Positions 1-42,910 of a DNA stretch of 54,761 bases are shown one piece after another (position 1 is the stretch's first letter; each line of letters starts with the position of its first letter). Under the pieces are notes generated by a model, which saw only the letters and a list, made by a program, of their open reading frames with translations, did not search any database and was not told the DNA's origin. The position numbers were made by a program, and so were the translations under genes. Origin of the DNA: an uncultured Candidatus Saccharibacteria bacterium (GTDB lineage: Bacteria; Patescibacteriota; Minisyncoccia; Phycocordibacterales; UBA2100); the NCBI GenBank assembly GCA_964471165.1, contig CAYYEX010000003.1, positions 1-54,761 of the forward strand. Direction: 5' to 3'.

Positions 1-1
1 G

Positions 2-86
2 CGGAGGGTGAGAGATTCGAACTCTCGGTCCCTTGCGAGACTCGTCCTTTCCAGGGACGTGCACTAGACCACTATGCGAACCCTCC
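2..86 (-). tRNA. tRNA-Ser (anticodon GGA), class II with long variable arm
   Basis: The reverse complement folds as a cloverleaf. Acceptor is GGAGGGT/ACCCTCC and the D arm is GCA-TAGTGGTCTAG-TGC. The anticodon stem CGTCC/GGACG surrounds loop CTGGAAA (GGA). There is a ~16-nt variable arm, a T arm GAGAG-TTCGAAT-CTCTC and discriminator G. Confidence 0.85.
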
Positions 87-4272: not shown

Positions 4273-4833
4273 TTAGAACTGTACTTTTACTGGTTCACGT
4301 GCGGCTGTTTCATTGTCGGCAAGCGCAAAAAACTCACGTGTCTTGAATCCAAACATGTTCCCGACGATATTTGTTGGGAACTGTTCGATTGCGTTCTGGA
4401 GTTCCTGCACGACGCCGTTGTAGAATCGACGCGCTGCCTGAATTTTGTTTTCTGTGTCGGAAAGCTCACGCTGCAATTCTACGAAGTTGGAATTTGCCTT
4501 GAGATCCGGATACGCTTCCGACAGAGCGAACACGGATTTGAGTGCCCCGGTGAGCATGTTTTCAGCTGCTGCATGCTCTTCGACAGTTTGTGCACCCATC
4601 GCCTTTGTGCGCGCCTCGGTGACTTTTTGCAGCGTACCCGCCTCGTGCGCAGCGTAACCCTTTACTGTTTCAATAAGATTCGGAATCAGATCGTATCGTC
4701 GCTTCATCTGCACGTCGATATCGGACCATGCTTCCTCTGTGCGGTTAGTAAGTTTTACGAATCGGTTGTATACCGCTACTCCGTAGAGGGCGATAAGCAC
4801 TACAGCGCCGATAATTATATAGAGTGTTGTCAT
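4273..4833 (-). CDS. lemA: LemA family membrane protein
   Basis: Single N-terminal TM segment, then YNRFVKLTNRTEEAWSDIDVQMKRRYDLIPNLIETVKGYAAHE, which matches the LemA signature region. Start taken at ATG 4833 (MTTLYIIIG...). Confidence 0.8.
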   Translation of the reverse strand: MTTLYIIIGAVVLIALYGVAVYNRFVKLTNRTEEAWSDIDVQMKRRYDLIPNLIETVKGYAAHEAGTLQKVTEARTKAMGAQTVEEHAAAENMLTGALKSVFALSEAYPDLKANSNFVELQRELSDTENKIQAARRFYNGVVQELQNAIEQFPTNIVGNMFGFKTREFFALADNETAAREPVKVQF

Positions 4834-4868: not shown

Positions 4869-4928
4869 CATGTGCCACGGCGACAATGATGTGTATCTCA
4901 GCGGGCAGACCGAATCCCACTCAGGAGA

Positions 4929-7900
4929 CTACTTGACGAGCACTTGTACGGAACCCGTCGCGTATGCCCCCGTGCCGTTCGTACAATAGATAGTATAGGT
5001 TGCCTTTGCAGTGAGCGGTCCAACGGTAAAGCTCGTATCCGGCGCCCCAATCGCAACTTGCTCAGTCTGTGTTTTGAAAGCACGGCACGCAGTGGCATTT
5101 ACACTTGTCCACGTGATGGTGCTGCTCTCCCCCGTCAATATCGGATTCGGTTGTGCTGATACTTGGACTGATATCGGACCGCGCACGAGAGGCTGCGTTT
5201 GCGTCGGCTGTGCTGGCTGCGGATTGAGCATCCCCGAAATCCCTTTTAAGAAACCTGAAAGTGCAGACATGATGCCGTTGAATGCACCTGCTCCACCGCC
5301 ACCACTCGGACTTGTGCCGGGTGTATTTGGTTGCGGCGAAGGGCTCGGAGACGGACTTGGATTCGGGTTTGGTTTTGGAGTATCCGTTCGCGTCTGAGGC
5401 TGTGGCTTTGGTGCTTCTGTTTTCGGTGTATCTGTTTTGGGGGGTGTTTTTGGAGTCGGTGGTGGCGGAAATACATCAGGCTTTGTTTCTGTTGGATACT
5501 TTTTCACGTCTGGGACAGCAGGGCCAGGAGTAACGTCCGGCTTGTTCGTCGTAATTGTTGAACCGATTTTTTCTTCTCCCGCGGGGGTTTTCGCCGGTGT
5601 GTCCGTGTTCGGGTTTGACGGCAATACTGCGTAGAGACCGCCTCCGCCAAGTAAGCCTCCGGCCCACCATTTTGCTTTACTGAACCACGAGCCTAATCCT
5701 CCGCCTCCTGAACCTGACCCTCCACCCCCGGTAACACCGCCCATTCCATTTGAACCAACACCGCCGATTGTGGGAGTAGTGCCAAGCGTTGGTGGTGGAA
5801 CATTACCTGGCTCTACCTGCTCAGCTGCAGCAGGCGGAGTTGTTGGAATTGGTGTTGGCGTTACTGCTGACGTTGCGGGCGCTAGGTTTTCAGTGGTAGT
5901 GACAGGAGATGTGTTCGTGGGCTGCACAGGTTGCGTCGTGTCTGGCGCGGCATTTGCCGTACCTGTTACTCGTTTTACCGTTGCATTGGCGTCGTTGCGA
6001 TACTCACTATCGAATGCGTAGTTAAACAACGCTTTCGGGAACGTAATTGCTGCTTTTACTCCAAGGTTCAAGAGTGGCATCGTAACGTATGGGTTCGAGC
6101 CGTCGACCGCCCACATCACGCCCGAAATGCCACCGGTCCATGCAAGCGCGTGAAGATTTGAGAAAAATCCATTTGTCGGCAGGAATGCCGAACGAACCAC
6201 GGACCAGACCATACCCCCGGCACTCCATCCCTGCGGGGTGGTTGGTTGTGCAGCCTCTGGAGCAGCCTCCGGTGTAACCGGTGCTGGTGTAGATGGTGCA
6301 TTTTGAGCAGGCACAACAACTTCTTCCGGAGCAACATACGGCTCAACACCCGTGACAGGCTCCGGTACAGCTGAGCGGAATCGAGTCCACACCGACTGTT
6401 CCGCGCGCCAATCCTGATATGCTTTGGCATTTATATTGGCAACCTCCTGCAGTGAAAATGTTTTTGCGCCTCCGTTCTGAGCAGCATCAAGACCAGCCCA
6501 GAATGCGTTCAGTTCATTGATATTCTTGGTCACGCTACCAGAACCATCAGCACGAACTGCGTCCTGGCGAACAGATGGAGAATTTTGTCCGCTCGGCGCT
6601 ACGTATGCTTCGCGAGGAATGAATGTTCCCTTTTGTCCCGCCTCTACCGCTGCCTTTGCGAGTGACTGCGCTGCATCAGTGAGATTTACCGCAGCAGATT
6701 TTGCCCGCTCATAATATGTTCCACTTGGATTCAGAACATATCCTTTTCGTGCAATGTCGGCATCTGTCAGCACTCGGTTAGAGAGTAACTCTAACTGCTG
6801 TTTCGTTACCCTATCAGGAAGACTGTCTGTCGTGATAACGGTATCAATGAGTTCATTCATCGCAGTTTGATTTGCGACAACCTCCTGCTCTGACGTAAAC
6901 CATGTCGCAGGAAACTGATACACGTCTCCGATACCGTTATTTGCCGTCATGCTCCCCGACACATTTACATGTTTGAATATTTCCTCTGAAGGCGCCATTA
7001 CACGTACGAGCACACTTTCCGGCACGTTTTTGCCGTACGAAATAGCAATGTCCGGACTATTGGAGAAAAACTGATCGCGGTAAGGACTTTGATATGCCCT
7101 ACTTATTCCGCGGTATAGGTACCTATATCCATCAGGGGCTTGTTCGCTTTGCAAACCAGTTATCATCTGCGGCGTAAGTTCCCGAATCGGGATTGTCTCA
7201 ATCGATTTCAGAGGAGAGCCGCTCGGTACGGAATGTTGCATGTACGGAACATCGGGTGTCGAACGCGCTTGTCCAGAAGTCGTCTCTACAATTGGTTCTG
7301 CGGCTTTTGCTGCTGCGGGCGTGTCCACTTCAACAGGAACAACAGGTTCTGCTTCTGCAATCGCGATTTTTGCAGGGGCTTCACTTCCAGTAATTGCTCG
7401 GTACTGTTCTTCGGTTATCACGCCTTCTGCCAGGAGCTCTTTCGTTCGCGCACGAATTTTACTTTCGACACTTGAAGAATACTTGAGTTTCTGTAGGTCC
7501 TCCGGGGGCATTTGAGAAATGTTCTCAACGCCACGTGAGTTATCAATCGCATCAATGCGCACTGTGCCTTCCGCGCTCAACGTTTTGGCAATTTCAAGCG
7601 AGCGCTTATACGTAGCTATAAAGACCTGGATTGGAACAACACGTCCCGCATCAATCGAATTACCGTTCATGCGAGAAATAACCCCGTTTTCCCATGCATC
7701 AAGTGGATCGCGATATACGTATTCAACCACTGGAATTTTTCCGGCCGCCTCTATTTCTGCAATTCTCGCGCGTGCCGCATCCACATTTGCAACAGAGCCG
7801 TCCATCGCAGCTGCGACCGTTCCATCAAGAAGTCCCTCAAACTTAGAGACTGTTGAACTCTTGCCGGCTCCCGGTCCTCCGACGAACAACATTGCGTATT

Positions 7901-10900
7901 TCCCTTCGTTTTGGAGCGCCCGTTTCCAAACCTCGTCGGCGAGTTCGCCGGAAACCTTTTGTACCGCTCCGGAATTTGTTCCGACGTAACCAATGTCTTT
8001 AAATAGAAGTCGCGCGAGGTCGGGATTTGCTGTCTTGTTGCCGAACAGCGATTGATACTGACTTATGAGCGCGTCTTTTTCGGCAAGATACTTCGCAATA
8101 GAGGCTTCCTGAAGAATCGCGTCATCCCCCGTCAGCTTCGCCCGCGGGAAGTTTTTGAACGCATCGGTTTGCGCTATCGGGTCGTTGAGGTATCCGTTGC
8201 GCACGTCTTCAATATTCTTTGGTGTAACGGGTTCTGTTTCTGGGGTTGCCGCCTCTTCACGCGCCTGGCTTGCGATTATTTCACGATAGTCGTCGAGCGA
8301 AATTACACCATGGTCGAGCATTTGTCCGGCAATACTTTCGGTTTCAATTTCCTCCGCTTGCGCCGACTGCGCAGTATTCGGCGCAGACTTAGACTGAGTA
8401 CGGCCAAGCAAACTACCAACTCCTGTAATGACGTCGTTGAAGGCTTTTGCGATTGCATTTGCAATCGCTGCATCTGCCTTCAGTAGATCGATATTTCCCT
8501 TGTTTGAAATGGTCTCCGGTGCTGGCGCATTGACCGTCACAGTACCTCCAGTTCTCGTATCCAACAGTGCGCTGCCCCTTCCTTGCATTGATGTCGGCGC
8601 GGGAGTAGGTGCCGGTGCGTTAACCGTAATATTTCCTGTATTACGCGTATCAAGTTTTCCGCTTCCCTGTCCTTGGATTGTGGGTAGCGGTTGTGCCGCC
8701 TGCGGTGCAAACGGCGTTGGAGCCGGCGGCGCGCTTGGCGGCGAATCCACGCGCGCGATTGCTTGTTCTCCCTGACCTTCTTCGCGAGTTCGCGTGTTGT
8801 TTGTTGGCTGTGGTTGCGGTGTTCTGTCCCCCGGTGTCGGTGCAGGATTCGCAGGAGTTGGATTCGCTGGTACTGGATTTGCGGGGGCCGGGCTGGTTGG
8901 TGCGGGATTGGCAGGAGCTGGGTTTACCGGAGTAGGAAGTGGCGCAAACTCAGGTGAAGGCGGCTGTATCATCGGCTTAAACGAAGTGAGTGATTCAGAA
9001 ACTGTTTCCTCTACTAGTGGGCCTTCAAACTCTGCGTACTGCCCCGGATTCACCGCGCTATGTACAATGTTGCCCCAGTTTATTTCTCCTTTATAGTCTT
9101 TCGAGTCAGCGACCCGATTCCAATCAGGACGAACGCCCAGCATGAGCATTGACTCATCAAAGGTGGAGTTCACAATGCCGTCGTAAAACGCATTCGCACG
9201 CTGCGCGCCACTGGAATGGCCATCAAACACCGGATTTGGTGCATTACTGCTGTACTGCGCTCTAAGCAAATCATCCCCCAAAGACCCAATAGCGTACCGA
9301 AGAGTCTGGAAAACATCTTTCCCTACCAGACCGGAGCCAACGAGCATATTTCCTGCCAGCGCATCCGCCTGGAGTTCTTCAATGGCACCCGGAGTTGTGA
9401 ATATTGCCTCAGATAGAGGCGGCATTACCTTGTAGTCAGCAAGCTTAACGCGAGAAGCTTGCACGGTACCCGTCATGTAGGCCACGTAGTGTCCAAGCTC
9501 GTGCGCCACCACATATCGCACAAGTTCACCTGGCGTATTTGAGTAATAGCCCTCCATTTTTCGGAGCTGCGCGATGTCCATGACAATTTTCCCCGACCCT
9601 ATGTCGAAGTGCGACCCGATATCGGTGAACTTCGGTAAAGCAGTTGTCGTATCAACAATAACTAATTCCGCTCGACGATACTGTCCCCCGTTTCTCCTTG
9701 CCTGAGTTTCAAGATAATCCTGCATTCTTTCAAAACTTGTACTTATTTCAGCGCGAACTGCTGCACTACTCATACTTGCAAGACGTGGAAGCGGCGTTGT
9801 ATTTGGCAATCCCGCAGGTGTATTTACCGGCGCTGGAATTATTTCTTTTGCAGTTTGGTCGGTTTGTCTGCCGAGTCGGTAGTTCAGCTTCAAATCTTCA
9901 AACTCTTTTTGTGTTCGCACAGGTGCAGGCTGCGTCGGTTGAACGGTTGGTTGTACTTTCGACGCAGTGCCGGGGGCTTCCAAGTTCAATCCTCGGGTAA
10001 CCTCTCCCCTGGGAATCGATCCGGTCCATGTTTCGGGGCGATCGTACCCCTCCATCGGGTCTGCCGCGGGAAACGGTGTCTGCGGAGCAGGAAGGTCCGG
10101 CCCCCTCGTAACCTCTCCCTTTGGAACACCTCCTGTTGTCACATCCAATGGAGGTGTCAGGGTTTCGGGTTTCGCCGAAGTAAGTGTCCCGCTCTCCGGT
10201 GCGTCAACTTTTTCCGGCGTTTCAGCACTTGGCACTTTCGCGTTATCTGCCATGTCTTTCATCAACTGTGAGCCAGCCTCCTGCCCGGAATTCGCAACGG
10301 GTGGAACGTACCCTGTTTTCAACGACCAGTCCGGGTTCAGATGCCCGAGGGCAAACTGATATGCATTCTTATCCATGTCTTTCCAGCGAATAGAATCAAG
10401 CTCTTCCTTTGTGAATGAAATCGTCTCTGTTTCCATCGTTGCTACGTCGTCCAACTTGTCGATCATGCTCTGAGGTAGATAGGTTCGAACACCGAGCGCC
10501 GCATACAATGCCAATTTCAATGAAATTGGACTTGCGTATGTGTATGACGGCGACGTTCCTACAAGATCGTTCGGGTACATTCTTAAATCCGGAGAAAAAT
10601 CCGGCGGGAGTGCGAGCTTGTCATCGCCTCCGGGAACCTGCTTAAATTCCGGCACTTTCTCCGCCTCTGGCGCAACTTCAATTGGATTTGGAAGTTCGGG
10701 GACTACCGTTTCTTGCGGCGTCGGTGTTGTTTCTGCGGGAGTGGTGGGCACAGGCTGTACCTCTGGCACTGGGGGTGCCTGCAGTGACTCGGGCGCTGGT
10801 GCCTGTTTCAATTCCGCCGCAGTCGACTGTTCAACTTTTTGAAGCGTCAATATGTTGGCATTCGCCGCAGATAATTCTGAGGCCAATCCCTTTCGTATCT

Positions 10901-13900
10901 TTTCAAGTTCATCTGAGTCCTCTACAGAGTCAGCTTTCGATGTTGCTTGAGCGATAACTTTTTGTGAACGCGAGAAGAGCGCCTTGCCCTGGGAACGCGC
11001 AGTGTTGAGATTTTGCTCCGTTTGATTTTTTGGTTGTTGCATCGCTGTCAACAAGTTCACGTAGCCACGCAATTCAGCCGCGAGAGCCGCATCCCCCAGT
11101 GCACGAATGTTGTTCGACAATCGTGATGCTCCGTTTGCTGCATTTCTGAGCGTTGCATGCTCAGCTGGATTCGGCGTCGTAGTCAAACGGTCAAGGAGCG
11201 CTCGCGCGGAGCCCATCGTAGTCAAATTTCTTTCCGATTGTTCAATCAGAAGCTCCTGTTTTTTTACGCCTGCAGTTTTCTGAACTATCGCGTCTATTTG
11301 CTTCTTAAGGTCTTGCACACGAGCCTGCGCACTTTTGAGAGACGTACGCGTGTCGTCTAGTTTCTTCTGAAGCGTGGAATTGCTAGAACTATTATCCGGA
11401 GTTGTTTTGGTAATCGGTTCTGCAGGTTTTTCTGGCGAGGTCGTCTCGGTTTTCGTCGGAGCTGCTGGAATCTCAATAGAGCGATTCGGGCTCGGTATAG
11501 ATGTATCTGCCTGCGGAAGATCGGCTCCGCGAGTAACTTCCCCCTTGGCAATCGGACCCTCTGTCGTTTGCGGTCGTTCGTATCCTTCCATTGCATCCGC
11601 AGCCGGGAACTGCGAACCTTCTGGAATAATCATCGGAGCCTGTGGCCACGTCGCCGTATCAAGCCGTTTGAATATTTGATTGAGCGCGAGCGTTTCTGCA
11701 AAATCTGGAGCAATGAACTGCTCAACAGGGGCAGGTGGTTTAGACGCAGTTGCCGTCGACGTGATTGTTTCTTCAGCAGGGGTTTCTTTCTTCGCGTACT
11801 GTGTCGAACCCTGCGGGAGTGTCGATTGGTAAATGCTGGCTATCTTTTCCGCAGAAAACTTATCGGTCAGTCGTACTGAGTGTTCAAGGAATGTTTTTTC
11901 GTTGACGAGCTTAATAATCTGGTCCTGATTGGTGTAATCGAGTTTCGTGTTCGGTCCAATGCCAACCGCTTTGGAAATTCGGGCTATCATGCCTGCTGTG
12001 TCGTTTTCGTATGCTGGTGAAAGCCGGTGCATCAATTTAGAAATCGTGTCGTCGCCACGCTTTATCCATTTCTGCACGTTATTGAAGTCTGCCTGAGTAC
12101 CGACTTCCAGCGACGAAAATCTTCTCGGCTGTTTACCGAGCATCATGTTTCCCGGATTATTGTTGCTGATGCCCTTACCCTTCGCCTCAACACTGGTAGA
12201 AAACGGATTGAAGTCTGGGATGATGTCGCCCGTAAACGGTTGCGCAAAAAGAAGCGACGCTGCGATTGCCGAGCGCGCGAACGCCTGAGTCACTACTTTT
12301 GGAATATTTGGAGAGATGTACGGACGTGTTGGTGCGGCGCTCACCGGTGCCTCGTCACCCAGATCTGAGGTGCGTGAGTCCGAGGCAGTTGGATTGTCAT
12401 TTGTTTCGCTCGCCGAAAGCTGACCGTTGTCGTTTACTACGCGAGTCGCAGCGTCAGCATTATCGTTTGCCGTTGCAATCGCGTCATCCGCGGTGGTTTG
12501 CGCAGTACTAAATCCAAGACGCTCTCCAATCCCCGAAACAACTCCCGAGATTCCCGAACGCAATCCCGCTGTCGCAGCGCGAATGCCACCGACGGCGGAT
12601 TTGATTTCCGAAGCAACTGCGTTTTCAACTCGAGCCACTACCGACGTTTCTGCCGTCCGTGCAGCAAGTCCAGACGCGGCTTCAGGCACGAGTGCGGGCG
12701 GAATCAAGCCCTCACGCAAAGAACCCTTCGCAATTGCCAGCGCTTCAACTGGTGATTCCGCGCCTGCGAATGTGCCCTTTGCTTGAGCTCCGATATCGGC
12801 ATACTTTGCATTTTCCGCGGCAGTCAGTTTTGAATCCCACTTCGCAAGCGCAGACTTCATTTCCGGAGAAAGATTGCTCGGCAACGACGAACGAAGCTCG
12901 TTGTACACACTACGCGCATCGGCAACTGTGGACTTAAATACGTTTTCAATGTGCGCGTCTACCGCGTTGAGTGCAGTGGTTGGTTTGATCGTTGCATCGA
13001 GATTGGACGTCTGCACATTTATGCGTTCCCCGTATTTGGCCTGAACAGCGGTTCTCTCAGCATTCGAGAGGCCCGATGTGTTCAATAGCTCTTTCAGCGG
13101 CGCGTTCGTACTTGCTTCGTTGAGTCCGCGACGAAGCGCAAAATCTCGCGCCTCGCTCAATGTAGAAGCTGTAGAAATATCGGAGGATAGTGCCAGTCGC
13201 TCGTTCAAACTCATCCCATATCCGGGCTTACTGGAGTTTGCTTGCGCTGTATTGAAAAGTCGCGCGCCGAGGCCCTCAGTACTACTATTGGCAGCGAGCG
13301 CCTTTGCAACCTCATCCTTGTACCCTTTCGCCAGCGCCCCCTGAAGCTGGCTATCGAGTGCCGCGCTATCAACTACCACATTACGCTCAGCCGCATACGT
13401 GCCACCGCCCTCTTTGGTGCGACCAACGCGACCAAGCGCCTGCACAAGCTCTTCGCGCTCAAGCTGTGCAACTTCTTTTACAATATTGCCCGCCGTATCT
13501 TTCGTCAGCTTATCGCTTTTGGTGAGGATTGTTTGCACGTAATCGCCTTTGTAATTGAAACCTTCTATCCCTTTTTTATCCACGATAAATGCTGTTTGTC
13601 GCGTTGAGGCTTCTTCTGCAAGTGAGTTAAACGATTGTCGCGTTTCCTTGCCGTTGACGTAGACTTTTCCGTCGGCGCCGTACTCGACGAGTCGTGCAGC
13701 TTTTCCTTCCCCAGCAACAGCACGCATCGCCAACTGCGCCTCCTCAAAGGCGGCCGGCGTTAATGCGACGGTGAGCGTGTTTTTTCCTTCACCGATTGCT
13801 GCCTGGGCGCGGGCGTTGGCCGTCTCAGACGTCCATGCGGTTTTTGTGCGCGTCCCATCCGCAGCAATAGTCTCAACTTCAGTGCGGAACCCATTGAGAT

Positions 13901-16900
13901 CGACGCGCGATGGCTTGATCGCAAGCACACCTTCACTTCCAATGCCCGAACGAATAAGGTTCTGTAATCCTTCGGCCGTTCCGGTCATACCACCCACGAG
14001 CACGCCCTGATTTGTTGCGTAGATATGCGTAAGCGGTGTTTCTGCTTTTGTCGTGCTCACGAACGTATCAACTTTATTTGCGCCAGCACCTCGTCCGTTC
14101 ATTTTCGCAGCTGTAAGCGGAAGCGTGGGATCCGAAAACTGCATTTCTAATTGAGGCTTTCCAAGCTTATCCGTCGGAACATACTTTTCTGCACCCGAGG
14201 CGTCGCGTACGAGCTTGTAACCATTTACACCACCATCTTTGAGTTCGAGCGTTCGAAGCACCTGCTGTGTCGTACGATCCGAGGACGAGAGTCCGACGCG
14301 CTCAAGTTCCTTTTGCGCGGCTGCATTGAATCGCACAGCACCCACCTCTCCGTTGAGGTTTTGCTCCACCAAGTACATGGGTTTGTTACTTTTTGTAAAC
14401 TCGCGCTCAAATTTCGACGCATTTGCATCAAGCATTTCGCTCATTTGCACGCGATTGCCGGCACCCGTCCCTGAATACTTTTCTACCGTGCTCGGCACTC
14501 CTTCAAAACCGTTTTCGGTTTTACGCATGCCGAGTTTTGTCATCACATTGTCGACGGCCGCTTCTTCCGCAGCAGTCACCGCTCTGCGTGAGTCGCTAAT
14601 AACAGATGAGGTTCTCGAACCAGCAAGGTTGTGCACTTCATCTACAACCGCCTTTCTCGTTTGTCCGAGGGCCTGTCTGAGCGCCGTTTGTTCCGCTCCG
14701 GTACCGAGGGAGAGACCAACTAAGTGCCCGCGCGTTTCTGGCGCCATGGCGATTACAGACGCCGTGCCGTTTTCTGACATTTTTGCTGCCGCGATAAATT
14801 CGGAAGGATTCGCGCCTTTGATTGTTTTTACGGGAGCTCCGACTTCGTTAAGAAACTGTCCGTATTTTTCTCCAAATTTCGTAACGAGATCTTGTGTGGG
14901 CGCGAGGTATTCCCACTGCGCACCCTTGCCGAGCGTAAGGCGTGTGCCGATGTAGTCGCCGATACTCACCGCACTCTTACCGAAGCTTGTTGCTGCGTTG
15001 ATTGATTTACCATTTCCCACTGCATAGAGTGCAAGACGTTGACCTTCGCTGAGCGTTTCGACACCTTCGGCAAGCGCAGTGAACTTTTCTTGGATAGCGC
15101 GCCGTGCAGCCGCACGCTCGGCAACAGAAGCGTACTTCGCGGCATTGTATGCCTCTTCAGCTTTCAAGAATGCCTGCCCAATTTCTGGTTTTGTTGAATT
15201 TAATCCTTTCGGCAATGTGGAGGCAAGCTGCGCTTCAAGATTCGCCTTTGCTTGAGCGCTTGCAGCGTCTGCGACTTCGATCTCACGGGCTGTTGCACGC
15301 CCGGCGGCCGCCAAATCTTTTTGCACGGCAGCCACATCTGTGTACGTAAACCCAATTCGGTCTTCCACCTCCTTGAGCAATTTTGCATTTGCCTCGGTGA
15401 GTTTACCTGCCTGCGCCTCAGCAAAAATTGTACGCGAGTCGCCTCCGAGTGCTGTGAGCTCACGCTCCATTTGTGGCACTACATTTTTCGTGAGCTCTTG
15501 CATTGCCGGCGCATCCGCTCGCTCTATTTCTCGAAGAGCGGCCCTGTCTGCATTTATGGTTTCTGGTGTGACACGTGCAAACAACGACTCAGACACTTCG
15601 CGCGATGCCGGTTGCCATGAAGAATTCTCAGATGCGCGCACGAGCATTGCTTCGTTGTTTGTTGCACGCGCAAGCACCTCATACTCACGACCAGCGACAG
15701 CTCGCGTATCGACGACAATGCCTGATTTGTTGAGCTCGGCTGTTGCTCTTTCTAAATTTACTTCGGCTGCTGCGACACGCGCCTGCGCCTCGGCTGCTGC
15801 AATTCGTAATTCTTCGGGAGCACTCGATCCACCCAATAACCCGGTCGTAGATTCACTTGCCGTCACGCGCTCAGCAGCTGCTGTGGCATCCATTTTTGCC
15901 ACACTCACAGCAGAGGACTCAGAAACAAAGTTCTCCACGAGGCGTGCTTCAGAGGTACTCAGTGCGGCACGCTCGGCGTTGAAGCCGAATGATTCGAATG
16001 CCGCGCGTCCGCCCGCTTTTATCGGACCATAGACGAGTTGTCCCACAATCGCCACATCAGCAACTGCAATAGCGCGCTCAACTGCACAACCGTTTAATGC
16101 GCACGTCGCCGCCTCTTTACCGTCAGCCGCAAACGCCGGCATTCCGCCATCAGTGAGTTCATTCCCCCACGCGCCAAGCGTTTGCAAACCGTGTGTTGCC
16201 GCAGCTGAAACGTCGAGCGTCAACTTAGCGGCAAGAGGGATCATGCCGTCGAAACCCGCTTTAAATATTTCGCCGTAGGTGCCGACGAGCTCGCTTCCTT
16301 TTTTCAAACTATCCGTCCATTCATGCAACTTTTTTGCGGCCGCTCCTTCAGTGTCATATGCGCGATCGACGATCTTGTCGTATCGCGAGTCCAAATCATC
16401 CAAATTTCCCGTTCGTGCGATTTCTGCATTCTCGGCTATATCGGCGCGTTCTGCCCTGAGTCGTTCGATTACGCGCTCAAGCCTACCAACTTCCGCATTC
16501 CACGCCGCCTCACCTCGAGGAATTTCGCCGTTGCCACGAAACGTAGCGGGATTCGACGCTCGTACTTTTTCGAGCTGTCTTTCCGCCATTGTAATCGCGT
16601 TATCTTTCGCCTGCTCCTCCTTTTTGATTGCCTGGTACACGTGACTCTCCGGCGTTAATCCCGCATCAAACTTTTGCTGAGCAATTATCGAGTCGCGTGC
16701 GTTGGCCGCATACGCATTGTATTCGGCGGTAAGACTCGCAACTTTCAGTTGATCCTGGCTTGAATATATTGGTCTGCCGTTACTGTCGTAACCGAGGGGC
16801 TTAATCTCACTCACCTCATCATTAAATTTCTGAGTGGTCTCGCTGAAGTTGTTCAGCATTTCCTTCGCGTTGTTGCCCTCGGGTTTTGCGAGCTGCAATA

Positions 16901-18500
16901 TTGGATCCCCTGCGTATTGAGTTTTGTACCAGTCGCCCGCTAGACCGGCAGCTTTGTTTTCGAGAATACTCGCAACGGCATTGTTTTCGATGTAGGTCTT
17001 CATCGAATCGCCCAAATCTTCTCTCATCTCCTTGGCGTCGCCCGGGTCAGCAAGCACGAGTCGGTTACCAATTCGCTCAACGCCGTAGTCATTCAAGACC
17101 TCCTGTATTTCTTTGAGGGCTTTGTCTGATTCGGAGCGTGGAACTACGGAGTCACCAAGACATCCTATGTATCCACACGTACTTTTTTGAACTGCATCGA
17201 TTTTGTCTTGAAGTGCTTTCTGTTCTGCTTGCTGCTCCGGCGTGAGTTTTGAATCACCGCCTTCTGGTGTGCCACAACTGCCCAACGTGCACACCCCCTT
17301 GTTGAGGGCGGCCAGGTCTTGCGGATTGTTTTTAAAATCAAGATTGCCCCTGTCGAGCGGATCATCAGCAACCTCGTCGCCGGCTTTGGGATTTCTAATC
17401 GCCTCGTTGTCGAGCGGACCCCCAGTGAATTGGTCCCACGCGCGCCGAGCTTCTGCGATCGCTTCCTTGTCGCCGCTTTTTACTGCAGCAGTGTAGTCGT
17501 CGCTGAGTTCTCTGAGTCGTGCGGAATCCAACTCCTCACGTTGTTTTATTGGGTCAATTTCAGGTTCACCGCCAAACGGATCTCGCCTCCATTCGTTCAA
17601 CGTATCTTGCGCATAATCTTGAACACGTTTCGAAAGGTCCGACACTTCATCGCCAATCTTTTTCCAAGTATCTGCTACAGGGTTCGTTTTGTCTGCGTCG
17701 GTACCATCTCGAGCGCCATCAGTTCCATCCGGATTTACATCAAAACCAGTTATTGGATCGGATTTGCGAGCAGCGTCGAACAGACTTCCCCCCGCAGTCT
17801 CAGTGGGAGTATCAGGCGACTCAACTTTTGGCTGTAGTGTTGCTTCTTCGCCCTTGAGCCAATTCCACAATCCGCCCTTTGCCTCGGCCTCTTTGAGTTG
17901 CTCAGCGAAACTGTTTACTTCTGGTACGGGTGTTTTTACATCGGGAACATCCTCGCATCGCCCGACGATACAGTTGCCCCAGGTATCGTATTTCGGTGAG
18001 TCATCTTGTTTCGGCTCTGTTTTTGGCTGCTCATCGGGAGTAGGACCCGGCGGTGTCGGCATGCTTGGTGGCGAACCACCTTCACCCGGCTTTGGCTCCT
18101 CTGGCGGTGGGACTGTGCCCGAAGGCGGTTCCGTTGCCGGTGCGCCGCCGGAACCCTCTGTTGGTTGGCCAGGGCATGCTTTGCCGTCACATAATCTCGC
18201 TTCACATCTTTTCTCCGCGACGCAAATACCTTTTACTTCTCCAACCCCAGCTGGATCCTCCCAACATATGCCCACTTTGCAGCCCTTTGTATTTTTTCCC
18301 TTTATGCATTTGGGTGCCTTGGAATCAGTTTCAGCAGCCTTGTTTGGCTCCATGCCGCACTCACAGTCTTTGTGGAACGGCTGACACATGTTGTTCGCAA
18401 ATCCACCCATTGCGCGAGCTACATGTGGTTGTAAAAAAAGAGTCGCAGAAAATGCAAAAAGTAGAACAAGAAAAGCGGCCGCAAAGCGACGCGTTAGCAT
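4929..18500 (-). CDS. Giant (4,523 aa) exported multidomain protein: signal peptide, Cys/Pro-rich stalk, coiled coil, SF2/SecA-like ATPase, zincin peptidase, zeta-toxin-like kinase, ART-like module, C-terminal hydrophobic anchors and Ig-like domain
   Basis: One uninterrupted ORF. N-terminus is MLTRRFAAAFLVLLFAFSATLFLQPHVARA. Motifs located by codon position are:
- ATSFGKS (K1175), DEVH (1287-1290), GMTGTA (1505), QALGRVGR (1687);
- NNPGN (~2113);
- VAHELGHYV (H3000) plus ELQADALAG;
- GGPGAGKS (K3547);
- LYRG (R3797) / SNS (3813-3815) / EQE (3871-3873);
- hydrophobic stretches encoded near nt 6060-6240 and 5620-5700. Confidence 0.9.
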   Translation of the reverse strand: MLTRRFAAAFLVLLFAFSATLFLQPHVARAMGGFANNMCQPFHKDCECGMEPNKAAETDSKAPKCIKGKNTKGCKVGICWEDPAGVGEVKGICVAEKRCEARLCDGKACPGQPTEGSGGAPATEPPSGTVPPPEEPKPGEGGSPPSMPTPPGPTPDEQPKTEPKQDDSPKYDTWGNCIVGRCEDVPDVKTPVPEVNSFAEQLKEAEAKGGLWNWLKGEEATLQPKVESPDTPTETAGGSLFDAARKSDPITGFDVNPDGTDGARDGTDADKTNPVADTWKKIGDEVSDLSKRVQDYAQDTLNEWRRDPFGGEPEIDPIKQREELDSARLRELSDDYTAAVKSGDKEAIAEARRAWDQFTGGPLDNEAIRNPKAGDEVADDPLDRGNLDFKNNPQDLAALNKGVCTLGSCGTPEGGDSKLTPEQQAEQKALQDKIDAVQKSTCGYIGCLGDSVVPRSESDKALKEIQEVLNDYGVERIGNRLVLADPGDAKEMREDLGDSMKTYIENNAVASILENKAAGLAGDWYKTQYAGDPILQLAKPEGNNAKEMLNNFSETTQKFNDEVSEIKPLGYDSNGRPIYSSQDQLKVASLTAEYNAYAANARDSIIAQQKFDAGLTPESHVYQAIKKEEQAKDNAITMAERQLEKVRASNPATFRGNGEIPRGEAAWNAEVGRLERVIERLRAERADIAENAEIARTGNLDDLDSRYDKIVDRAYDTEGAAAKKLHEWTDSLKKGSELVGTYGEIFKAGFDGMIPLAAKLTLDVSAAATHGLQTLGAWGNELTDGGMPAFAADGKEAATCALNGCAVERAIAVADVAIVGQLVYGPIKAGGRAAFESFGFNAERAALSTSEARLVENFVSESSAVSVAKMDATAAAERVTASESTTGLLGGSSAPEELRIAAAEAQARVAAAEVNLERATAELNKSGIVVDTRAVAGREYEVLARATNNEAMLVRASENSSWQPASREVSESLFARVTPETINADRAALREIERADAPAMQELTKNVVPQMERELTALGGDSRTIFAEAQAGKLTEANAKLLKEVEDRIGFTYTDVAAVQKDLAAAGRATAREIEVADAASAQAKANLEAQLASTLPKGLNSTKPEIGQAFLKAEEAYNAAKYASVAERAAARRAIQEKFTALAEGVETLSEGQRLALYAVGNGKSINAATSFGKSAVSIGDYIGTRLTLGKGAQWEYLAPTQDLVTKFGEKYGQFLNEVGAPVKTIKGANPSEFIAAAKMSENGTASVIAMAPETRGHLVGLSLGTGAEQTALRQALGQTRKAVVDEVHNLAGSRTSSVISDSRRAVTAAEEAAVDNVMTKLGMRKTENGFEGVPSTVEKYSGTGAGNRVQMSEMLDANASKFEREFTKSNKPMYLVEQNLNGEVGAVRFNAAAQKELERVGLSSSDRTTQQVLRTLELKDGGVNGYKLVRDASGAEKYVPTDKLGKPQLEMQFSDPTLPLTAAKMNGRGAGANKVDTFVSTTKAETPLTHIYATNQGVLVGGMTGTAEGLQNLIRSGIGSEGVLAIKPSRVDLNGFRTEVETIAADGTRTKTAWTSETANARAQAAIGEGKNTLTVALTPAAFEEAQLAMRAVAGEGKAARLVEYGADGKVYVNGKETRQSFNSLAEEASTRQTAFIVDKKGIEGFNYKGDYVQTILTKSDKLTKDTAGNIVKEVAQLEREELVQALGRVGRTKEGGGTYAAERNVVVDSAALDSQLQGALAKGYKDEVAKALAANSSTEGLGARLFNTAQANSSKPGYGMSLNERLALSSDISTASTLSEARDFALRRGLNEASTNAPLKELLNTSGLSNAERTAVQAKYGERINVQTSNLDATIKPTTALNAVDAHIENVFKSTVADARSVYNELRSSLPSNLSPEMKSALAKWDSKLTAAENAKYADIGAQAKGTFAGAESPVEALAIAKGSLREGLIPPALVPEAASGLAARTAETSVVARVENAVASEIKSAVGGIRAATAGLRSGISGVVSGIGERLGFSTAQTTADDAIATANDNADAATRVVNDNGQLSASETNDNPTASDSRTSDLGDEAPVSAAPTRPYISPNIPKVVTQAFARSAIAASLLFAQPFTGDIIPDFNPFSTSVEAKGKGISNNNPGNMMLGKQPRRFSSLEVGTQADFNNVQKWIKRGDDTISKLMHRLSPAYENDTAGMIARISKAVGIGPNTKLDYTNQDQIIKLVNEKTFLEHSVRLTDKFSAEKIASIYQSTLPQGSTQYAKKETPAEETITSTATASKPPAPVEQFIAPDFAETLALNQIFKRLDTATWPQAPMIIPEGSQFPAADAMEGYERPQTTEGPIAKGEVTRGADLPQADTSIPSPNRSIEIPAAPTKTETTSPEKPAEPITKTTPDNSSSNSTLQKKLDDTRTSLKSAQARVQDLKKQIDAIVQKTAGVKKQELLIEQSERNLTTMGSARALLDRLTTTPNPAEHATLRNAANGASRLSNNIRALGDAALAAELRGYVNLLTAMQQPKNQTEQNLNTARSQGKALFSRSQKVIAQATSKADSVEDSDELEKIRKGLASELSAANANILTLQKVEQSTAAELKQAPAPESLQAPPVPEVQPVPTTPAETTPTPQETVVPELPNPIEVAPEAEKVPEFKQVPGGDDKLALPPDFSPDLRMYPNDLVGTSPSYTYASPISLKLALYAALGVRTYLPQSMIDKLDDVATMETETISFTKEELDSIRWKDMDKNAYQFALGHLNPDWSLKTGYVPPVANSGQEAGSQLMKDMADNAKVPSAETPEKVDAPESGTLTSAKPETLTPPLDVTTGGVPKGEVTRGPDLPAPQTPFPAADPMEGYDRPETWTGSIPRGEVTRGLNLEAPGTASKVQPTVQPTQPAPVRTQKEFEDLKLNYRLGRQTDQTAKEIIPAPVNTPAGLPNTTPLPRLASMSSAAVRAEISTSFERMQDYLETQARRNGGQYRRAELVIVDTTTALPKFTDIGSHFDIGSGKIVMDIAQLRKMEGYYSNTPGELVRYVVAHELGHYVAYMTGTVQASRVKLADYKVMPPLSEAIFTTPGAIEELQADALAGNMLVGSGLVGKDVFQTLRYAIGSLGDDLLRAQYSSNAPNPVFDGHSSGAQRANAFYDGIVNSTFDESMLMLGVRPDWNRVADSKDYKGEINWGNIVHSAVNPGQYAEFEGPLVEETVSESLTSFKPMIQPPSPEFAPLPTPVNPAPANPAPTSPAPANPVPANPTPANPAPTPGDRTPQPQPTNNTRTREEGQGEQAIARVDSPPSAPPAPTPFAPQAAQPLPTIQGQGSGKLDTRNTGNITVNAPAPTPAPTSMQGRGSALLDTRTGGTVTVNAPAPETISNKGNIDLLKADAAIANAIAKAFNDVITGVGSLLGRTQSKSAPNTAQSAQAEEIETESIAGQMLDHGVISLDDYREIIASQAREEAATPETEPVTPKNIEDVRNGYLNDPIAQTDAFKNFPRAKLTGDDAILQEASIAKYLAEKDALISQYQSLFGNKTANPDLARLLFKDIGYVGTNSGAVQKVSGELADEVWKRALQNEGKYAMLFVGGPGAGKSSTVSKFEGLLDGTVAAAMDGSVANVDAARARIAEIEAAGKIPVVEYVYRDPLDAWENGVISRMNGNSIDAGRVVPIQVFIATYKRSLEIAKTLSAEGTVRIDAIDNSRGVENISQMPPEDLQKLKYSSSVESKIRARTKELLAEGVITEEQYRAITGSEAPAKIAIAEAEPVVPVEVDTPAAAKAAEPIVETTSGQARSTPDVPYMQHSVPSGSPLKSIETIPIRELTPQMITGLQSEQAPDGYRYLYRGISRAYQSPYRDQFFSNSPDIAISYGKNVPESVLVRVMAPSEEIFKHVNVSGSMTANNGIGDVYQFPATWFTSEQEVVANQTAMNELIDTVITTDSLPDRVTKQQLELLSNRVLTDADIARKGYVLNPSGTYYERAKSAAVNLTDAAQSLAKAAVEAGQKGTFIPREAYVAPSGQNSPSVRQDAVRADGSGSVTKNINELNAFWAGLDAAQNGGAKTFSLQEVANINAKAYQDWRAEQSVWTRFRSAVPEPVTGVEPYVAPEEVVVPAQNAPSTPAPVTPEAAPEAAQPTTPQGWSAGGMVWSVVRSAFLPTNGFFSNLHALAWTGGISGVMWAVDGSNPYVTMPLLNLGVKAAITFPKALFNYAFDSEYRNDANATVKRVTGTANAAPDTTQPVQPTNTSPVTTTENLAPATSAVTPTPIPTTPPAAAEQVEPGNVPPPTLGTTPTIGGVGSNGMGGVTGGGGSGSGGGGLGSWFSKAKWWAGGLLGGGGLYAVLPSNPNTDTPAKTPAGEEKIGSTITTNKPDVTPGPAVPDVKKYPTETKPDVFPPPPTPKTPPKTDTPKTEAPKPQPQTRTDTPKPNPNPSPSPSPSPQPNTPGTSPSGGGGAGAFNGIMSALSGFLKGISGMLNPQPAQPTQTQPLVRGPISVQVSAQPNPILTGESSTITWTSVNATACRAFKTQTEQVAIGAPDTSFTVGPLTAKATYTIYCTNGTGAYATGSVQVLVK
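8845..8934 (-). repeat. Six tandem 15-nt units inside the giant ORF, encoding (P-A-N-P-x) repeats
   Basis: Plus-strand units are GGATTCGCAGGAGTT / GGATTCGCTGGTACT / GGATTTGCGGGGGCC / GGGCTGGTTGGTGCG / GGATTGGCAGGAGCT / GGGTTTACCGGAGTA. They translate on the minus strand to NPAPANPAPTSPAPANPVPANPTPANPAP. Confidence 0.8.
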
Positions 18501-18566
18501 TCATTAATTGTAGCAGTAGAGCCACGCAATTCGTCTCATTGTGTGGCTCTACCTGTGCATATTTCT
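18501..18566 (-). promoter_or_regulatory. Conserved upstream element, copy 1: 10-bp inverted repeat (18543-18552 / 18516-18525, 17-nt spacer) followed by extended -10 TGcTACAAT, then 6 nt, then the ATG of the giant gene
   Basis: Minus strand reads agaaatatgcacagGTAGAGCCACacaatgagacgaattgcGTGGCTCTACTGcTACAATtaatgaATG. It can be aligned base for base with 20297-20362. Confidence 0.55.
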
Positions 18567-18592
18567 AGTAACCGTTCGGGAGAAAACAGTTG

Positions 18593-20296
18593 CTACTGCT
18601 TGACCTGATTTTTCTTCGTGCGCTGTGCTGCTTTTCCTATTTCCACATTACTGGTGGTACTGGGTAAAAATTCCAGTGATATCCCCATGGTCTCCCGAGC
18701 GCCCTTGATGAAGTTTTCCAAAGCGCGCTCTCGCCGCGCGCTATCTCCCGACTGTGTGGCCAAATAGAGTTCCTTACGCAGCAGTTGGAAATCCAGTTCC
18801 TTCGGGGCTGTCGGGCGCACGTCGTACGAACCGACCCAGAGGCCGCCCGGCTCCACAAGGAGCGTTGTTATCTCGTAGCGGGGGTCAGTACTCAAATACC
18901 GCACATCGTCGGGAAACACGGTCTTTGTGTCAGCATAGCCGGATGGCCCCGTAAGGAGCTGCTCAGGGAACGGCGTCGACACGTCCATATCGGGAAATCG
19001 GGCTTTGAATCCAGCCTTGCTCGAATCGACAGGGTGGTCATGTGTCATGATCAAATATTTGAAATCAGGAAACTTTGCGGCCTCTTCGAGCGCCCGTTTC
19101 TCAAGCAGTCTGCCGAGTGCAGGTGGAATTATTTTCACGTCCCCGTTGCCGAGTAATGTGAGGCAGCTTTCAAATTCCGCGTCACAGATCGTGGCGGCTG
19201 CTGTTTCAACTGGTTTTCCGCTCGGACCAATTTCTGATTGCAAAAGCCGCACCAGACTAGTCGGCGGAAAGTTTTCCAACCGTTTAATTTCACTTGGCGG
19301 GAGCGTGCTCACGCGACCCCACGGCATCTGTGGCGTCTCCGGCACTTTTGGATTCTCCAATTTTTTCTGATTGATCTCAAAAAGTCTTTGTAGCAGGTCC
19401 CTCAGCTTCAGCATGAGCTGCGGCAAAATGCCTTGTGGTTGTACCGCCTTCTCCTCAGCGCGAAATCCTGATTCCGGATTTGAAACATTCTGACGCCCAG
19501 GTTCATTGAGTGCCAGCACCTTCATTGGTTCTGGTGGAGCAAAGCCCGTTGCATCTTTTCGCGGCGGTATCTCGTAGCGCTCCTCTCTCAAGTTTGTGAC
19601 CTCGGGTTCCCTTCGCTGTTCCACGATTGGTTCTATTTTCTTTTGCTCAGAAAAATCGACCGTCTTTGTTTCTTCGATCTTTTCCTGTTTTTTTGTCAAT
19701 GTGTCGAGCCCGTTGGTAAACACAGATTTTTCAGCACTCTTCGTAAATGGTTCCCATGCTGCAAGTGCTTTTTCCACATCCGACTTTGTTCCTTGACCGT
19801 TCTCGAGTGTGCCACGCATCAACTCAAGTCCTGTCGAAGTTCCTGTTTGGTTGGGTTTCGGTGTCTCTGGCGGCTTATCATCTTTCGGTGGTGGTATTTG
19901 CGGCATCTGTGGTGGCTGACCGCCTTTTTCATCTTCTTTTCCCTTACCACCGGAGCATCCCGGTGAACCTTTGTTTGCGCCCTCACAATCTGCCTGTTGT
20001 GGCTTTTCTCCTTCGGCAGTGGCTGTGGCTTCACATTTTTGAGGCGCCACACATTTCCCGGTAACCGGCCCTTTCACGGTTTGGACCTTGCACGGGCAAT
20101 CTTTACCGCCGATCTTAATTCCCGCTTCTGTTTTTATTTCTTTGTTGCATGGCTCGCTGTACACCTTGTTGATCACGCATTCAGGATTGATACCTTCCGC
20201 TGCTTTTGCCGAGGGAATATTCAAAATCACTATCGACGCTCCAATAACGACCGCGACATACACGATAAGAGCGGCCGCATAGCGACGCAGTTGCAT
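18593..20296 (-). CDS. Secreted or membrane-anchored Cys-rich/Pro-rich protein (567 aa), paralogous at its N-terminus to the giant protein; C-terminal globular domain of unknown function
   Basis: N-terminal hydrophobic segment is AALIVYVAVVIGASIVILNIPSAKA. GKCVAPQKCEA matches GICVAEKRCEA in the giant protein. A Pro-rich tract follows in both, and AAWEPFT here matches RAWDQFT there. Confidence 0.7.
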   Translation of the reverse strand: MQLRRYAAALIVYVAVVIGASIVILNIPSAKAAEGINPECVINKVYSEPCNKEIKTEAGIKIGGKDCPCKVQTVKGPVTGKCVAPQKCEATATAEGEKPQQADCEGANKGSPGCSGGKGKEDEKGGQPPQMPQIPPPKDDKPPETPKPNQTGTSTGLELMRGTLENGQGTKSDVEKALAAWEPFTKSAEKSVFTNGLDTLTKKQEKIEETKTVDFSEQKKIEPIVEQRREPEVTNLREERYEIPPRKDATGFAPPEPMKVLALNEPGRQNVSNPESGFRAEEKAVQPQGILPQLMLKLRDLLQRLFEINQKKLENPKVPETPQMPWGRVSTLPPSEIKRLENFPPTSLVRLLQSEIGPSGKPVETAAATICDAEFESCLTLLGNGDVKIIPPALGRLLEKRALEEAAKFPDFKYLIMTHDHPVDSSKAGFKARFPDMDVSTPFPEQLLTGPSGYADTKTVFPDDVRYLSTDPRYEITTLLVEPGGLWVGSYDVRPTAPKELDFQLLRKELYLATQSGDSARRERALENFIKGARETMGISLEFLPSTTSNVEIGKAAQRTKKNQVKQ

Positions 20297-20362
20297 CTGT
20301 TCATACTAACAGTAGAGCCCCGCAATTAGTTCAATTGAGGGGCTCTACCTGTGAATACTTCT
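20297..20362 (-). promoter_or_regulatory. Conserved upstream element, copy 2: inverted repeat (20339-20348 / 20312-20321, 17-nt spacer), extended -10 TGtTAGTAT, 6 nt, then the ATG of the 567-aa gene
   Basis: Minus strand reads agaagtattcacagGTAGAGCCCCtcaattgaactaattgcGGGGCTCTACTGtTAGTATgaacagATG. The geometry is the same as copy 1. The A-to-C change in one arm is matched by a T-to-G change in the other. Confidence 0.55.
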
Positions 20363-20380
20363 CCCCGCCCACCCCGTTAG

Positions 20381-20490
20381 CTTAGCGAGAAGCTTCCTTT
20401 ATGGAACCCTCGGGAGGAGCGGCGGCGACGGACGGAAGAAAATCTCACCAGAGATTTTCTGTGGTTCCAGAAAGGAAGCTTCTCGCGAAG
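20381..20490 (-). repeat. Long imperfect inverted repeat (about 27 bp of pairing) enclosing a second 10-bp hairpin, immediately after the groEL stop codon
   Basis: Arm 20385-20408 (gcgagaagcttcctttatggaacc) pairs with 20463-20486 (ggttccagaaaggaagcttctcgc) at 23 of 24 positions, and 20381-20383 pairs with 20488-20490. The inner hairpin is 20437-20446 / 20451-20460 with loop ACCA. No U-run follows on the minus strand. Confidence 0.6.
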
Positions 20491-20492
20491 CG

Positions 20493-42883: not shown

Positions 42884-42910
42884 GAAAACTCAAGAGAACT
42901 CAAGAGAACT
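42877..42910. repeat. 3.4 tandem copies of a 10-bp unit (AACTCAAGAR)
   Basis: aactcaagaa / aactcaagag / aactcaagag / aact, read directly. It lies between the matrixin-gene stop and the DHOD-like gene start. Confidence 0.85.

Follow-up and report, generated by a model that had tools for sequence, protein, structure and literature searches.

Positions 1 to 54,761 of contig CAYYEX010000003.1, a stretch that is referred to in its full length as the window, encode on the minus strand a giant protein of 4523 aa. In the interior of this protein lies a module that, as far as its sequence goes, is an ATPase of helicase superfamily 2 (SF2). Comparisons of alignments make it likely that its ancestor was a SecA-type motor and that its insert is equivalent to the preprotein cross-linking domain (PPXD). 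By analogy to known systems, and with somewhat better than even chances, it would be a very divergent SecA-type motor that is tethered to the giant chain, acts in cis, and helps to move this chain across a membrane. That giant proteins can contain a SecA-like motor has been described before. In Omnitrophota and some Actinobacteria, most of the giants have divergent SecA_DEAD and preprotein-binding domains and no scaffold or wing (West-Roberts et al., bioRxiv 10.1101/2023.11.21.568195; PMC8195603), and it was proposed that these embedded SecA domains export the giant protein itself (bioRxiv 10.1101/2023.11.21.568195; see also PMC8195603, 10.64898/2026.06.07.730766). Since SecA-like modules lacking scaffold and wing have been described, the present case is a very divergent form of a known arrangement, found here in Kaiserbacteria.

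An earlier note on this DNA had pointed to four motif strings at 13401-15023. All four are present at these positions, which correspond to aa ~1160-1700 of the 4523-aa open reading frame (ORF). The ORF and the parts of the module, including two nucleotide-binding domains (NBD1, NBD2) named after their SecA counterparts, are as follows:

4929..18500, minus strand: giant ORF of 4523 aa, a single uninterrupted frame that contains the SecA-like module (an identical protein is recorded from a 173.5-kb contig)
12591..15167, minus strand: conserved SecA-like module, aa ~1112-1970, the only long stretch common to the relatives P0002, P0003, and P0005 (see below)
14973..14996, minus strand: motif I (Walker A) AATSFGKS, aa 1169-1176, with Lys 1175 (exact string)
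14592..14648, minus strand: motif II VVDEVHNLAGSRTSSVISD, aa 1285-1303, comprising VVDEVH (D1287, E1288) and the strand SRTSSVIS (exact string)
14031..14591, minus strand: ~187-aa insert, aa 1304-1490, located where SecA has its PPXD (aligned by hhalign to SecA 228-368, in register)
13968..14030, minus strand: return strand ETPLTHIY and motif III GGMTGTAEG, aa 1491-1511 (part of the best local hhalign match)
13341..13967, minus strand: second RecA-like lobe (NBD2-like), aa 1512-1720, with the motif V-like GIEGFN at aa 1644 (assigned from motifs)
13401..13442, minus strand: motif VI QALGRVGRTKEGGG, aa 1687-1700, with R1691 and R1694 (exact string)
12591..13340, minus strand: stretch of ~250 aa that follows NBD2 and is conserved in the family, aa 1721-1970, where scaffold and wing are located in SecA

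GGMTGTAEG itself covers aa 1503-1511 (nt 13968-13994). The strand SRTSSVIS after motif II leads into the insert, and its counterpart in SecA is DEVDSILIDEARTPLIIS. As the note had claimed, the distances between the motifs resemble those of SecA: ~116 aa from I to II, 218 aa from II to III, and ~182-184 aa from III to VI, compared to 105, 180, and 181 aa in E. coli SecA (MG1655). The room for a PPXD-like insertion between motifs II and III, which had been deduced from this spacing, is taken up by an insert of ~190 aa at the PPXD position.

Relatives of the module were collected by an exhaustive phmmer search with aa 1100-1800 against 1.84 billion representatives. This yielded seven proteins including the query, and thus six relatives (P0002-P0007). 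P0002 (MBI5470382.1; 7,694 aa; 'hypothetical protein [Candidatus Kaiserbacteria bacterium]') has a module that is 32% identical, and its gene occupies the equivalent slot between GroEL and LemA in GCA_016217975.1 (locus L095, 10001-33085). P0003, P0004, and P0005 are large metagenomic proteins that break off where a scaffold gap or the end of a contig is reached, and are flanked by very large neighbouring genes; all three show clusters of hydrophobic segments downstream of the module in a simple hydropathy scan. P0006 and P0007 are short fragments. An alternative genetic code was considered for the contig of P0003 and rejected, as the frame break is a run of N in the scaffold. Scans of genome, metagenome, and viral contigs with the module gave no match, and neither did tblastn against plasmids.

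The Walker A Lys, the DE[VAI]H of motif II, an [ST][AG]T in motif III, and both Args of motif VI have been retained by all relatives whose sequences extend over these positions, at an overall identity among the module homologues of just 23-37%. With all four motifs present and the key residues conserved among relatives, the assignment to the SF2 ATPases, as made in the earlier note, is supported. Around these residues the motifs vary. Walker A reads GEGKT or GGGKT in the relatives, motif III appears as MTGTA in the giant protein and as LSATL or ASGTI in the relatives, and motif VI is found as QALGRVGRT, QNVGRLSRT, and QLLLRTGRS. The exact GMTGTA is confined to the giant protein, and the LSATL and ASGTI of the relatives are generic SF2 forms of motif III. 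For this reason, and because motif VI is likewise generic, the strings of motifs III and VI cannot be regarded as SecA-specific variants, as had been suggested. The Pfam domain DEAD (PF00270) was matched with 26.6 bits by a 631-aa segment (cut-off 26), with 25.8 bits by an 861-aa segment, and with 23.2 bits by the whole protein. Helicase_C_2 and Helicase_C gave weak matches, each in one family member.

Comparison of the giant protein to P0002 revealed two homologous regions only, namely aa ~1112-1970 and a Zn-peptidase domain. Over the module the two proteins are 28% identical (785-847 aligned residues, aa 1153-1937 of the giant protein, E 6e-53). Because just these two regions are common to both, the module is to be seen, from the sequences, as the conserved core of these proteins, while the flanking effector-like domains vary.

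In order to compare the family to SecA, three alignments were set against the family alignment A1, which consists of the module and its relatives. One, the SecA motor alignment, contains E. coli SecA and ten diverse SecA, SecA2, and SecA-like genes from the plasmid collection; another contains the SecA-like domains embedded in proteins of Legionella, Megaera, Rickettsia, and Bandiella; the third combines the embedded-domain set with the SecA set. Significance of the hhalign scores was judged against column-shuffled alignments. A1 scored 35.5 against the SecA motor alignment (P 0.0026), compared to 17.1±2.4 for 60 shuffles (maximum 22.4) and 19.9 for the reversed alignment, which gives a z of 7.8. 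The best local match lies outside the generic P-loop and extends over SecA 324-430. It begins in the C-terminal half of the PPXD, continues through the return strand and motif III, and includes the strand with which NBD2 starts; the PPXD stretch in it reads YIV.DGEV.IVDE.TGR...GRRWSDGLHQAIEAKE. With permissive settings, motifs I, Ia, and II, the insert, and motifs III and VI were all collinear with SecA. When the giant protein was left out of the family, the score against the combined alignment was 47.1 (P 7e-5) over 325 collinear columns from upstream of Walker A to the start of NBD2, while 50 shuffles gave 16.2±2.7 (maximum 25.3; z 11.5). Since the giant protein was left out, its exact GMTGTA cannot drive the match to SecA. 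Several single SecA-type templates each picked out the same region independently, and of single E. coli SecA the Walker A alone was aligned. The distance between motifs II and III is also of the SecA type: it amounts to 218 aa here, 203-234 aa in the relatives, 180 aa in SecA, and 196-215 aa in embedded SecA-like domains, and to 35 aa in RecQ and 31 aa in a DEAD-box helicase. The SecA flavour of the module that the earlier note had described thus stands for the site of the insert and for the collinear hhalign match running through it; it found no counterpart in Pfam or HMMER matches to SecA. The hhalign comparisons with shuffle controls are the sole basis on which the assignment to SecA is proposed.

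Upstream of the module, the following features were found in the giant protein:

18411..18500, minus strand: signal-peptide-like segment, aa 1-30 (read by eye; Kyte-Doolittle value 2.17)
18174..18386, minus strand: Cys-rich N-terminal region, aa 39-109, with 10 Cys (by Cys count)

As read by eye, the N-terminus consists of MLTRR, a hydrophobic core of 18-19 residues, and ARA|M. The hydropathy scan showed no other strong hydrophobic segment in the giant protein, and just a weak one at aa 801-819. We regard it as a putative Sec-type signal peptide, and to this extent the earlier designation of the protein as Sec-exported agrees with the N-terminus. The N-termini of P0002, of a neighbouring 567-aa protein, and of a large protein of the related locus L005 (the latter two described below) are built alike. 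The giant protein contains 20 Cys in total, all located within aa 39-805 or in the last ~50 residues (positions 4472 and 4506), with four C-x4-C pairs at 177/182, 404/409, 442/447, and 800/805. The 3,666 residues from aa 806 to aa 4471, including the motor and all enzymatic domains, are devoid of Cys, while 29.5 would be expected from the Cys frequency of 0.8% in the other proteins of the window (P ~1e-13). Cys is likewise avoided in the modules of P0002 and P0005. Because of this depletion we read the Cys-free stretch as a probable trace of selection on a chain that crosses a membrane unfolded or works outside the cytoplasm.

In the tethered, cis-acting motor that we favour, two RecA-like lobes would carry the SF2 motifs, the first of them being broken after the DEVH strand by the ~190-aa equivalent of the PPXD, and a family-specific region of ~250 aa would stand where SecA has its scaffold and wing. 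By analogy to SecA and to embedded SecA-like modules, this assembly would bind and push polypeptide and not nucleic acid. Its site of action would most likely be the cytoplasmic face of the producer during export, and the hydrophobic clusters of the relatives fit a motor that is anchored there.

A considerable number of results weigh against the kinship to SecA or against the export model built on it. The Pfam families SecA_DEAD (PF07517), SecA_PP_bind, and P-loop_SecA (PF21090) were matched neither by the module of the giant protein nor by P0002 at E<=1, although the embedded modules of Legionella and Megaera matched SecA_DEAD in the same run (1e-25 and 2e-37). HMMER comparison of the family to our home-made SecA set gave no match in either direction, and searches of the PDB, run with the sequence itself as well as with the profile, returned no helicase or SecA. 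The hhalign probabilities are low (11-59%), and the motif I-II core scored 42.3 with RecQ and 39.4 with a DEAD-box helicase, at least as high as with any single SecA. The insert columns alone gave moderate evidence when aligned to the PPXD (16.7 versus 9.7±2.1 for shuffles, maximum 18.9; z 3.35, P 0.06). No scaffold or wing was recognised: the region following NBD2 scored 17.1 against SecA 590-835 (shuffles 11.5±2.3, maximum 18.6), and in this comparison motif VI alone aligned. The Arg of SecA motif V (AGRGTD in E. coli) is apparently replaced, as the family has GIEGFN, GTNGIN, GATGKN, and ISQGVD in a register set by eye, and motif VI together with the following strand is generic to SF2. AlphaFold2 models of the 631-aa module (pLDDT 41.5) and of a 253-aa segment with the insert (45.5), built from alignments of 7 and 5 sequences, are too poor to define a fold, and Foldseek searches of the PDB with both gave noise. 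As to topology, the simple hydropathy scan of the giant protein showed no convincing transmembrane (TM) segment beyond the N-terminus that could hold the motor in the cytoplasm, and for a motor that is preceded by 1,100 exported residues it is not obvious how it could push itself across.

In a rival explanation, the module would be an ordinary DExH helicase or translocase for nucleic acids with an unrelated insert, similar to the SF2 helicases of polyvalent proteins. Pfam signals are confined to DEAD, ResIII, and Helicase_C types, DEVH or DEAH is conserved instead of the DEVD of SecA, and for the motif I-II region the best alignments are those to RecQ and DEAD-box helicases. The LSATL in motif III of the relatives is DExH-like, and by eye motif Ia (LAPTQDL) resembles the DEAD-box PTRELA. 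Zeta toxin, metallopeptidase, and phage-protein-like domains, all present in the giant protein, are typical companions in polyvalent proteins (PMC5512222). However, an insert of 200-235 aa between motifs II and III is the layout of SecA and not that of RecQ or DEAD-box helicases, and the match to the SecA profile runs through the insert with z values of 7.8-11.5, also without the giant protein. Moreover, in polyvalent proteins the helicase is of the SNF2 type and accompanied by a methylase (PMC5512222), whereas the giant protein has no methylase, and its gene is chromosomal, in no phage or plasmid context and with no match among viral contigs or plasmids. We consider a plain helicase improbable. 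With respect to the choice between SecA and helicases that the earlier note had posed, the insert speaks for SecA, while the motif I-II core fits RecQ and DEAD-box proteins at least equally well. A decayed and catalytically dead remnant that serves just as a structural spacer could account for the non-canonical Walker A (TSFGKS), the apparently missing Arg of motif V, and the extreme divergence from all known families. This is very unlikely to be the case, since the Lys, the DE, motif III, and both Args of motif VI are kept across homologues of 23-37% identity, and the module is the most conserved part of giant proteins that cannot be aligned otherwise.

Another explanation accepts the kinship to SecA and places the module in a different cell: it would act in a recipient (host or prey) on the ATP of the recipient, either by reeling in effectors or as a mimic that interferes with Sec. 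An N-terminal signal not followed by a convincing TM segment, and a Cys-free stretch of 3,666 residues spanning the motor and all enzymatic domains, would be in agreement with such a role. So would the zeta-toxin-like kinase, as zeta toxins are known to need cytoplasmic nucleotide substrates, and the domain order, in which the motor precedes the effector-like domains. Among Candidate Phyla Radiation (CPR) bacteria, Saccharibacteria and Absconditabacteria live attached to other cells, as described in PMC8080830. On the other hand, Pfam scans found no delivery apparatus and no pore-forming or receptor-binding domain, no immunity gene was identified, and the hydrophobic clusters after the module in P0002, P0003, and P0005 fit a motor anchored to the membrane of the producer. 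The literature proposes self-export (bioRxiv 10.1101/2023.11.21.568195), and a SecA-type motor that works in trans in another cell is without experimental precedent. Action in a recipient thus appears doubtful to us. Its most specific form, a self-delivering multi-effector whose Cys-free chain is threaded into an attached host, where the motor folds and draws on host ATP to ratchet in the peptidase and the zeta toxin or blocks the Sec system of the host, is less likely still; if true, a SecA-type motor would work in trans inside another organism. The earlier note had argued that a motor behind a signal peptide implies either delivery into another cell or an unexpected topology. Delivery is compatible with the zeta-toxin domain and the Cys-free stretch, though we do not expect it to be the answer, and the two options leave out the self-export from the cytoplasmic side of the producer that has been published (bioRxiv 10.1101/2023.11.21.568195; PMC8195603).

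Outside the module, the giant protein contains further domains:

11859..12176, minus strand: domain similar to the Gp29 N-terminus, aa 2109-2214, with the motif GISNNNPGNM (PDB 9vvp_L, 1295 aa, E 7.5e-8)
9168..9767, minus strand: neutral Zn-metallopeptidase of the YpfJ type, aa 2912-3111, with HELGH (Pfam Zn_peptidase; also in P0002)
7542..7898, minus strand: zeta-toxin-like P-loop kinase, aa ~3535-3653, with GGPGAGKSS (Pfam 27.2 bits, cut-off 22.3)
4947..5210, minus strand: C-terminal domain of ~88 aa with 2 Cys, common to the 2274-aa protein of locus L005

Gp29 (PDB 9vvp_L) is a phage protein. From its sequence pattern one might guess that the C-terminal domain is Ig-like. Pfam searches with sub-segments of the giant protein revealed no further domains. 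An ADP-ribosyltransferase of the R-S-E type was suspected by eye at aa ~3796-3880 (YRGISR...FFSNSPD...SEQEVV; window ~6860-7115, minus strand), and is not claimed here, as there was no Pfam match at E<=5. Short internal repeats lie within aa ~2300-2837 and ~3270-3330 (window ~9990-11600 and ~8500-8700, minus strand). The sequence FPAAD(A/P)MEGY(E/D)RP..T..G.I..GEVTRG is found around aa 2300-2325 and again around aa 2810-2837, an extra GEVTRG is located at 2795, and G(Q/R)GS..LDTR..G..TVNAPAP is present twice.

The gene for the giant protein is surrounded in the window by genes for GroEL, GroES, SecG, LemA, DUF2207, an M48 peptidase, RNase J, Ddl, MetK, and GlmS. The GroEL protein shares 80-82% identity with proteins from metagenome-assembled genomes labelled Ca. 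Kaiserbacteria, Paceibacterota, or Patescibacteria, and the host is an ultra-small CPR bacterium of Kaiserbacteria affinity. The order RNase J, SBP5, SecG, GroES, GroEL, LemA, M48 is kept in related genomes. Between GroEL and LemA the related loci (L005, L008-L013) have gaps of ~0.1 to ~7.6 kb, and L095 has ~28 kb. In the window this slot (4921-20492) contains the giant gene and the following ORF directly upstream of it:

18593..20296, minus strand: 567-aa ORF, putative signal peptide, N-terminus rich in Cys (10 Cys)

The 567-aa protein, which is possibly a partner of the giant protein, matched nothing in Pfam, NCBIfam, or PHROG. At L095, the giant gene is likewise preceded by genes for Cys-rich secreted proteins, of 328 and 532 aa; these two are analogous to the 567-aa protein and have no detectable sequence similarity to it. 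The slot of L005 encodes a different signal-peptide protein of 2,274 aa that has only the last ~88 residues in common with the giant protein, and the giant gene is not present in the Kaiserbacteria loci fetched via GroEL. The GroEL-LemA slot is thus variable in Kaiserbacteria-like genomes and hosts different giant signal-peptide proteins. SecA was not found within the 54.8-kb window; SecG is encoded three genes away from the giant gene.

From the housekeeping neighbours, the synteny, and the lack of viral or plasmid relatives we conclude that the giant gene is chromosomal, located in a variable slot and not on a recognisable mobile element. An origin from a mobile element, as a polyvalent protein, was rejected on this context (conserved housekeeping synteny, no matches to viral contigs or plasmids). 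Some further observations were made at these loci. P0002 carries an intein (PF14890) and two Zn-peptidase-like regions, and immediately upstream of its gene at L095 is a gene resembling Y1 transposases. The Kaiserbacteria contig of L095 also encodes the cytochrome oxidase subunits COX1-3, which are probably unusual in CPR bacteria. In the window, a 310-aa protein (42909-43841, minus strand) matches Peptidase_M10 (matrixin) with 262 residues over 147 profile positions, which suggests an insert of ~100 aa; weak matches of the coiled-coil type indicate that this may be a coiled coil. A tRNA-Ser (GGA) is located at the very start of the window (1-86, minus strand).

So far, embedded SecA-like motors were noticed through Pfam in Omnitrophota and Actinobacteria, and by annotation in some Rickettsiales. 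Our data would extend the arrangement to CPR/Patescibacteria, in which the module is too divergent for standard annotation (P0002 is a 'hypothetical protein'), and suggest that the motor forms a conserved core around which the effector-like domains are exchanged. Should such motors drive export or delivery, this would help to explain how very small, host-dependent bacteria come to have very large surface or effector proteins. With ~860 aa the module is small enough for expression and assay.

Canonical SecA and SecA2 have the same order of elements as the module: NBD1 is followed by the insert at the site of the PPXD, next comes the return strand carrying motif III, and then NBD2, which holds motif VI, all at similar spacings. 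The strand after motif II is RTPLIIS in SecA and RTSSVIS here, and enters the insert in both. The PPXD-like stretch reads Y..V..G....PVD.LG..Q......D...QITA here and YIV.DGEV.IVDE.TGR...GRRWSDGLHQAIEA in SecA. In contrast to the present module, which is embedded and has no detectable scaffold, wing, or C-terminal tail, canonical SecA is a free-standing cytosolic protein of ~800-1000 aa. It also has DEVD and the Arg of motif V, whereas the module has DExH, apparently lacks the Arg, and is not matched by any SecA profile HMM.

SecA-like giants are also encoded on plasmids of Legionella geestiana (NZ_CP041715), Ca. Megaera (CP113870), the Rickettsia endosymbiont of Culicoides (CP084574), and Ca. 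Bandiella. These proteins (loci L094, L098, L099, L100) comprise ~1,600-5,200 aa and match Pfam SecA_DEAD with 1e-25 to 2e-37. Like the giant protein they have an internal motor, and at 196-215 aa the distance between their motifs II and III is similar; hhalign of the family against these domains also picks the region of PPXD and motif III. Unlike the present module, they keep GEGK[ST], DEVD[SN], and G[LM]TGT, share 23-27% identity with canonical SecA, and are encoded on plasmids of bacteria that live inside cells. Direct sequence similarity between the present module and the plasmid modules was not detectable by HMMER or by tblastn against plasmids. The Ca. Megaera plasmid has two adjacent genes for a 'SecA-like domain protein'.

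Polyvalent proteins (Iyer et al. 2017, PMC5512222) and polymorphic toxins resemble the giant protein in uniting many unrelated enzymatic or toxin-type domains in one huge polypeptide, and in combining a conserved core with cargo that varies between homologues. Polyvalent proteins belong to phages or conjugative elements, however, whereas the giant gene is chromosomal among housekeeping genes and encodes a putative Sec-type signal peptide. In polyvalent proteins the SNF2-like helicase is fused to a methylase, and neither a trafficking domain of polymorphic toxins nor an immunity gene was recognised at the locus.

Differences exist as well to the modules of Omnitrophota and Actinobacteriota, including those in the giant actinobacterial toxins (PMC8195603; Kaur et al., eLife 2021). 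They match Pfam SecA_DEAD and SecA_PP_bind, while the present module does not, has DEVH/DEAH instead of DEVD, and has apparently not kept the Arg of motif V. Giants of the Omnitrophota type contain many TM regions, some of them beside the motor, where the simple hydropathy scan showed none in the giant protein and hydrophobic clusters in P0002, P0003, and P0005. Omnitrophota giants exceed 30 kaa, compared to 4.5 kaa for the giant protein and 7694 aa for P0002, and the host is here a CPR bacterium (Kaiserbacteria), a group from which such modules were not reported in bioRxiv 10.1101/2023.11.21.568195 and PMC8195603. The systems are nevertheless alike in their overall design. In both, a DEAD motor of the SecA type with a preprotein-binding insert, in the present case a probable one, is located inside a protein of thousands of residues, has no scaffold or wing, and is very divergent and fast-evolving in sequence; in both, the giants carry signal peptides, putative in the present case, and companions of the peptidase or toxin type, and their hosts are ultra-small bacteria predicted to be host-dependent or predatory.

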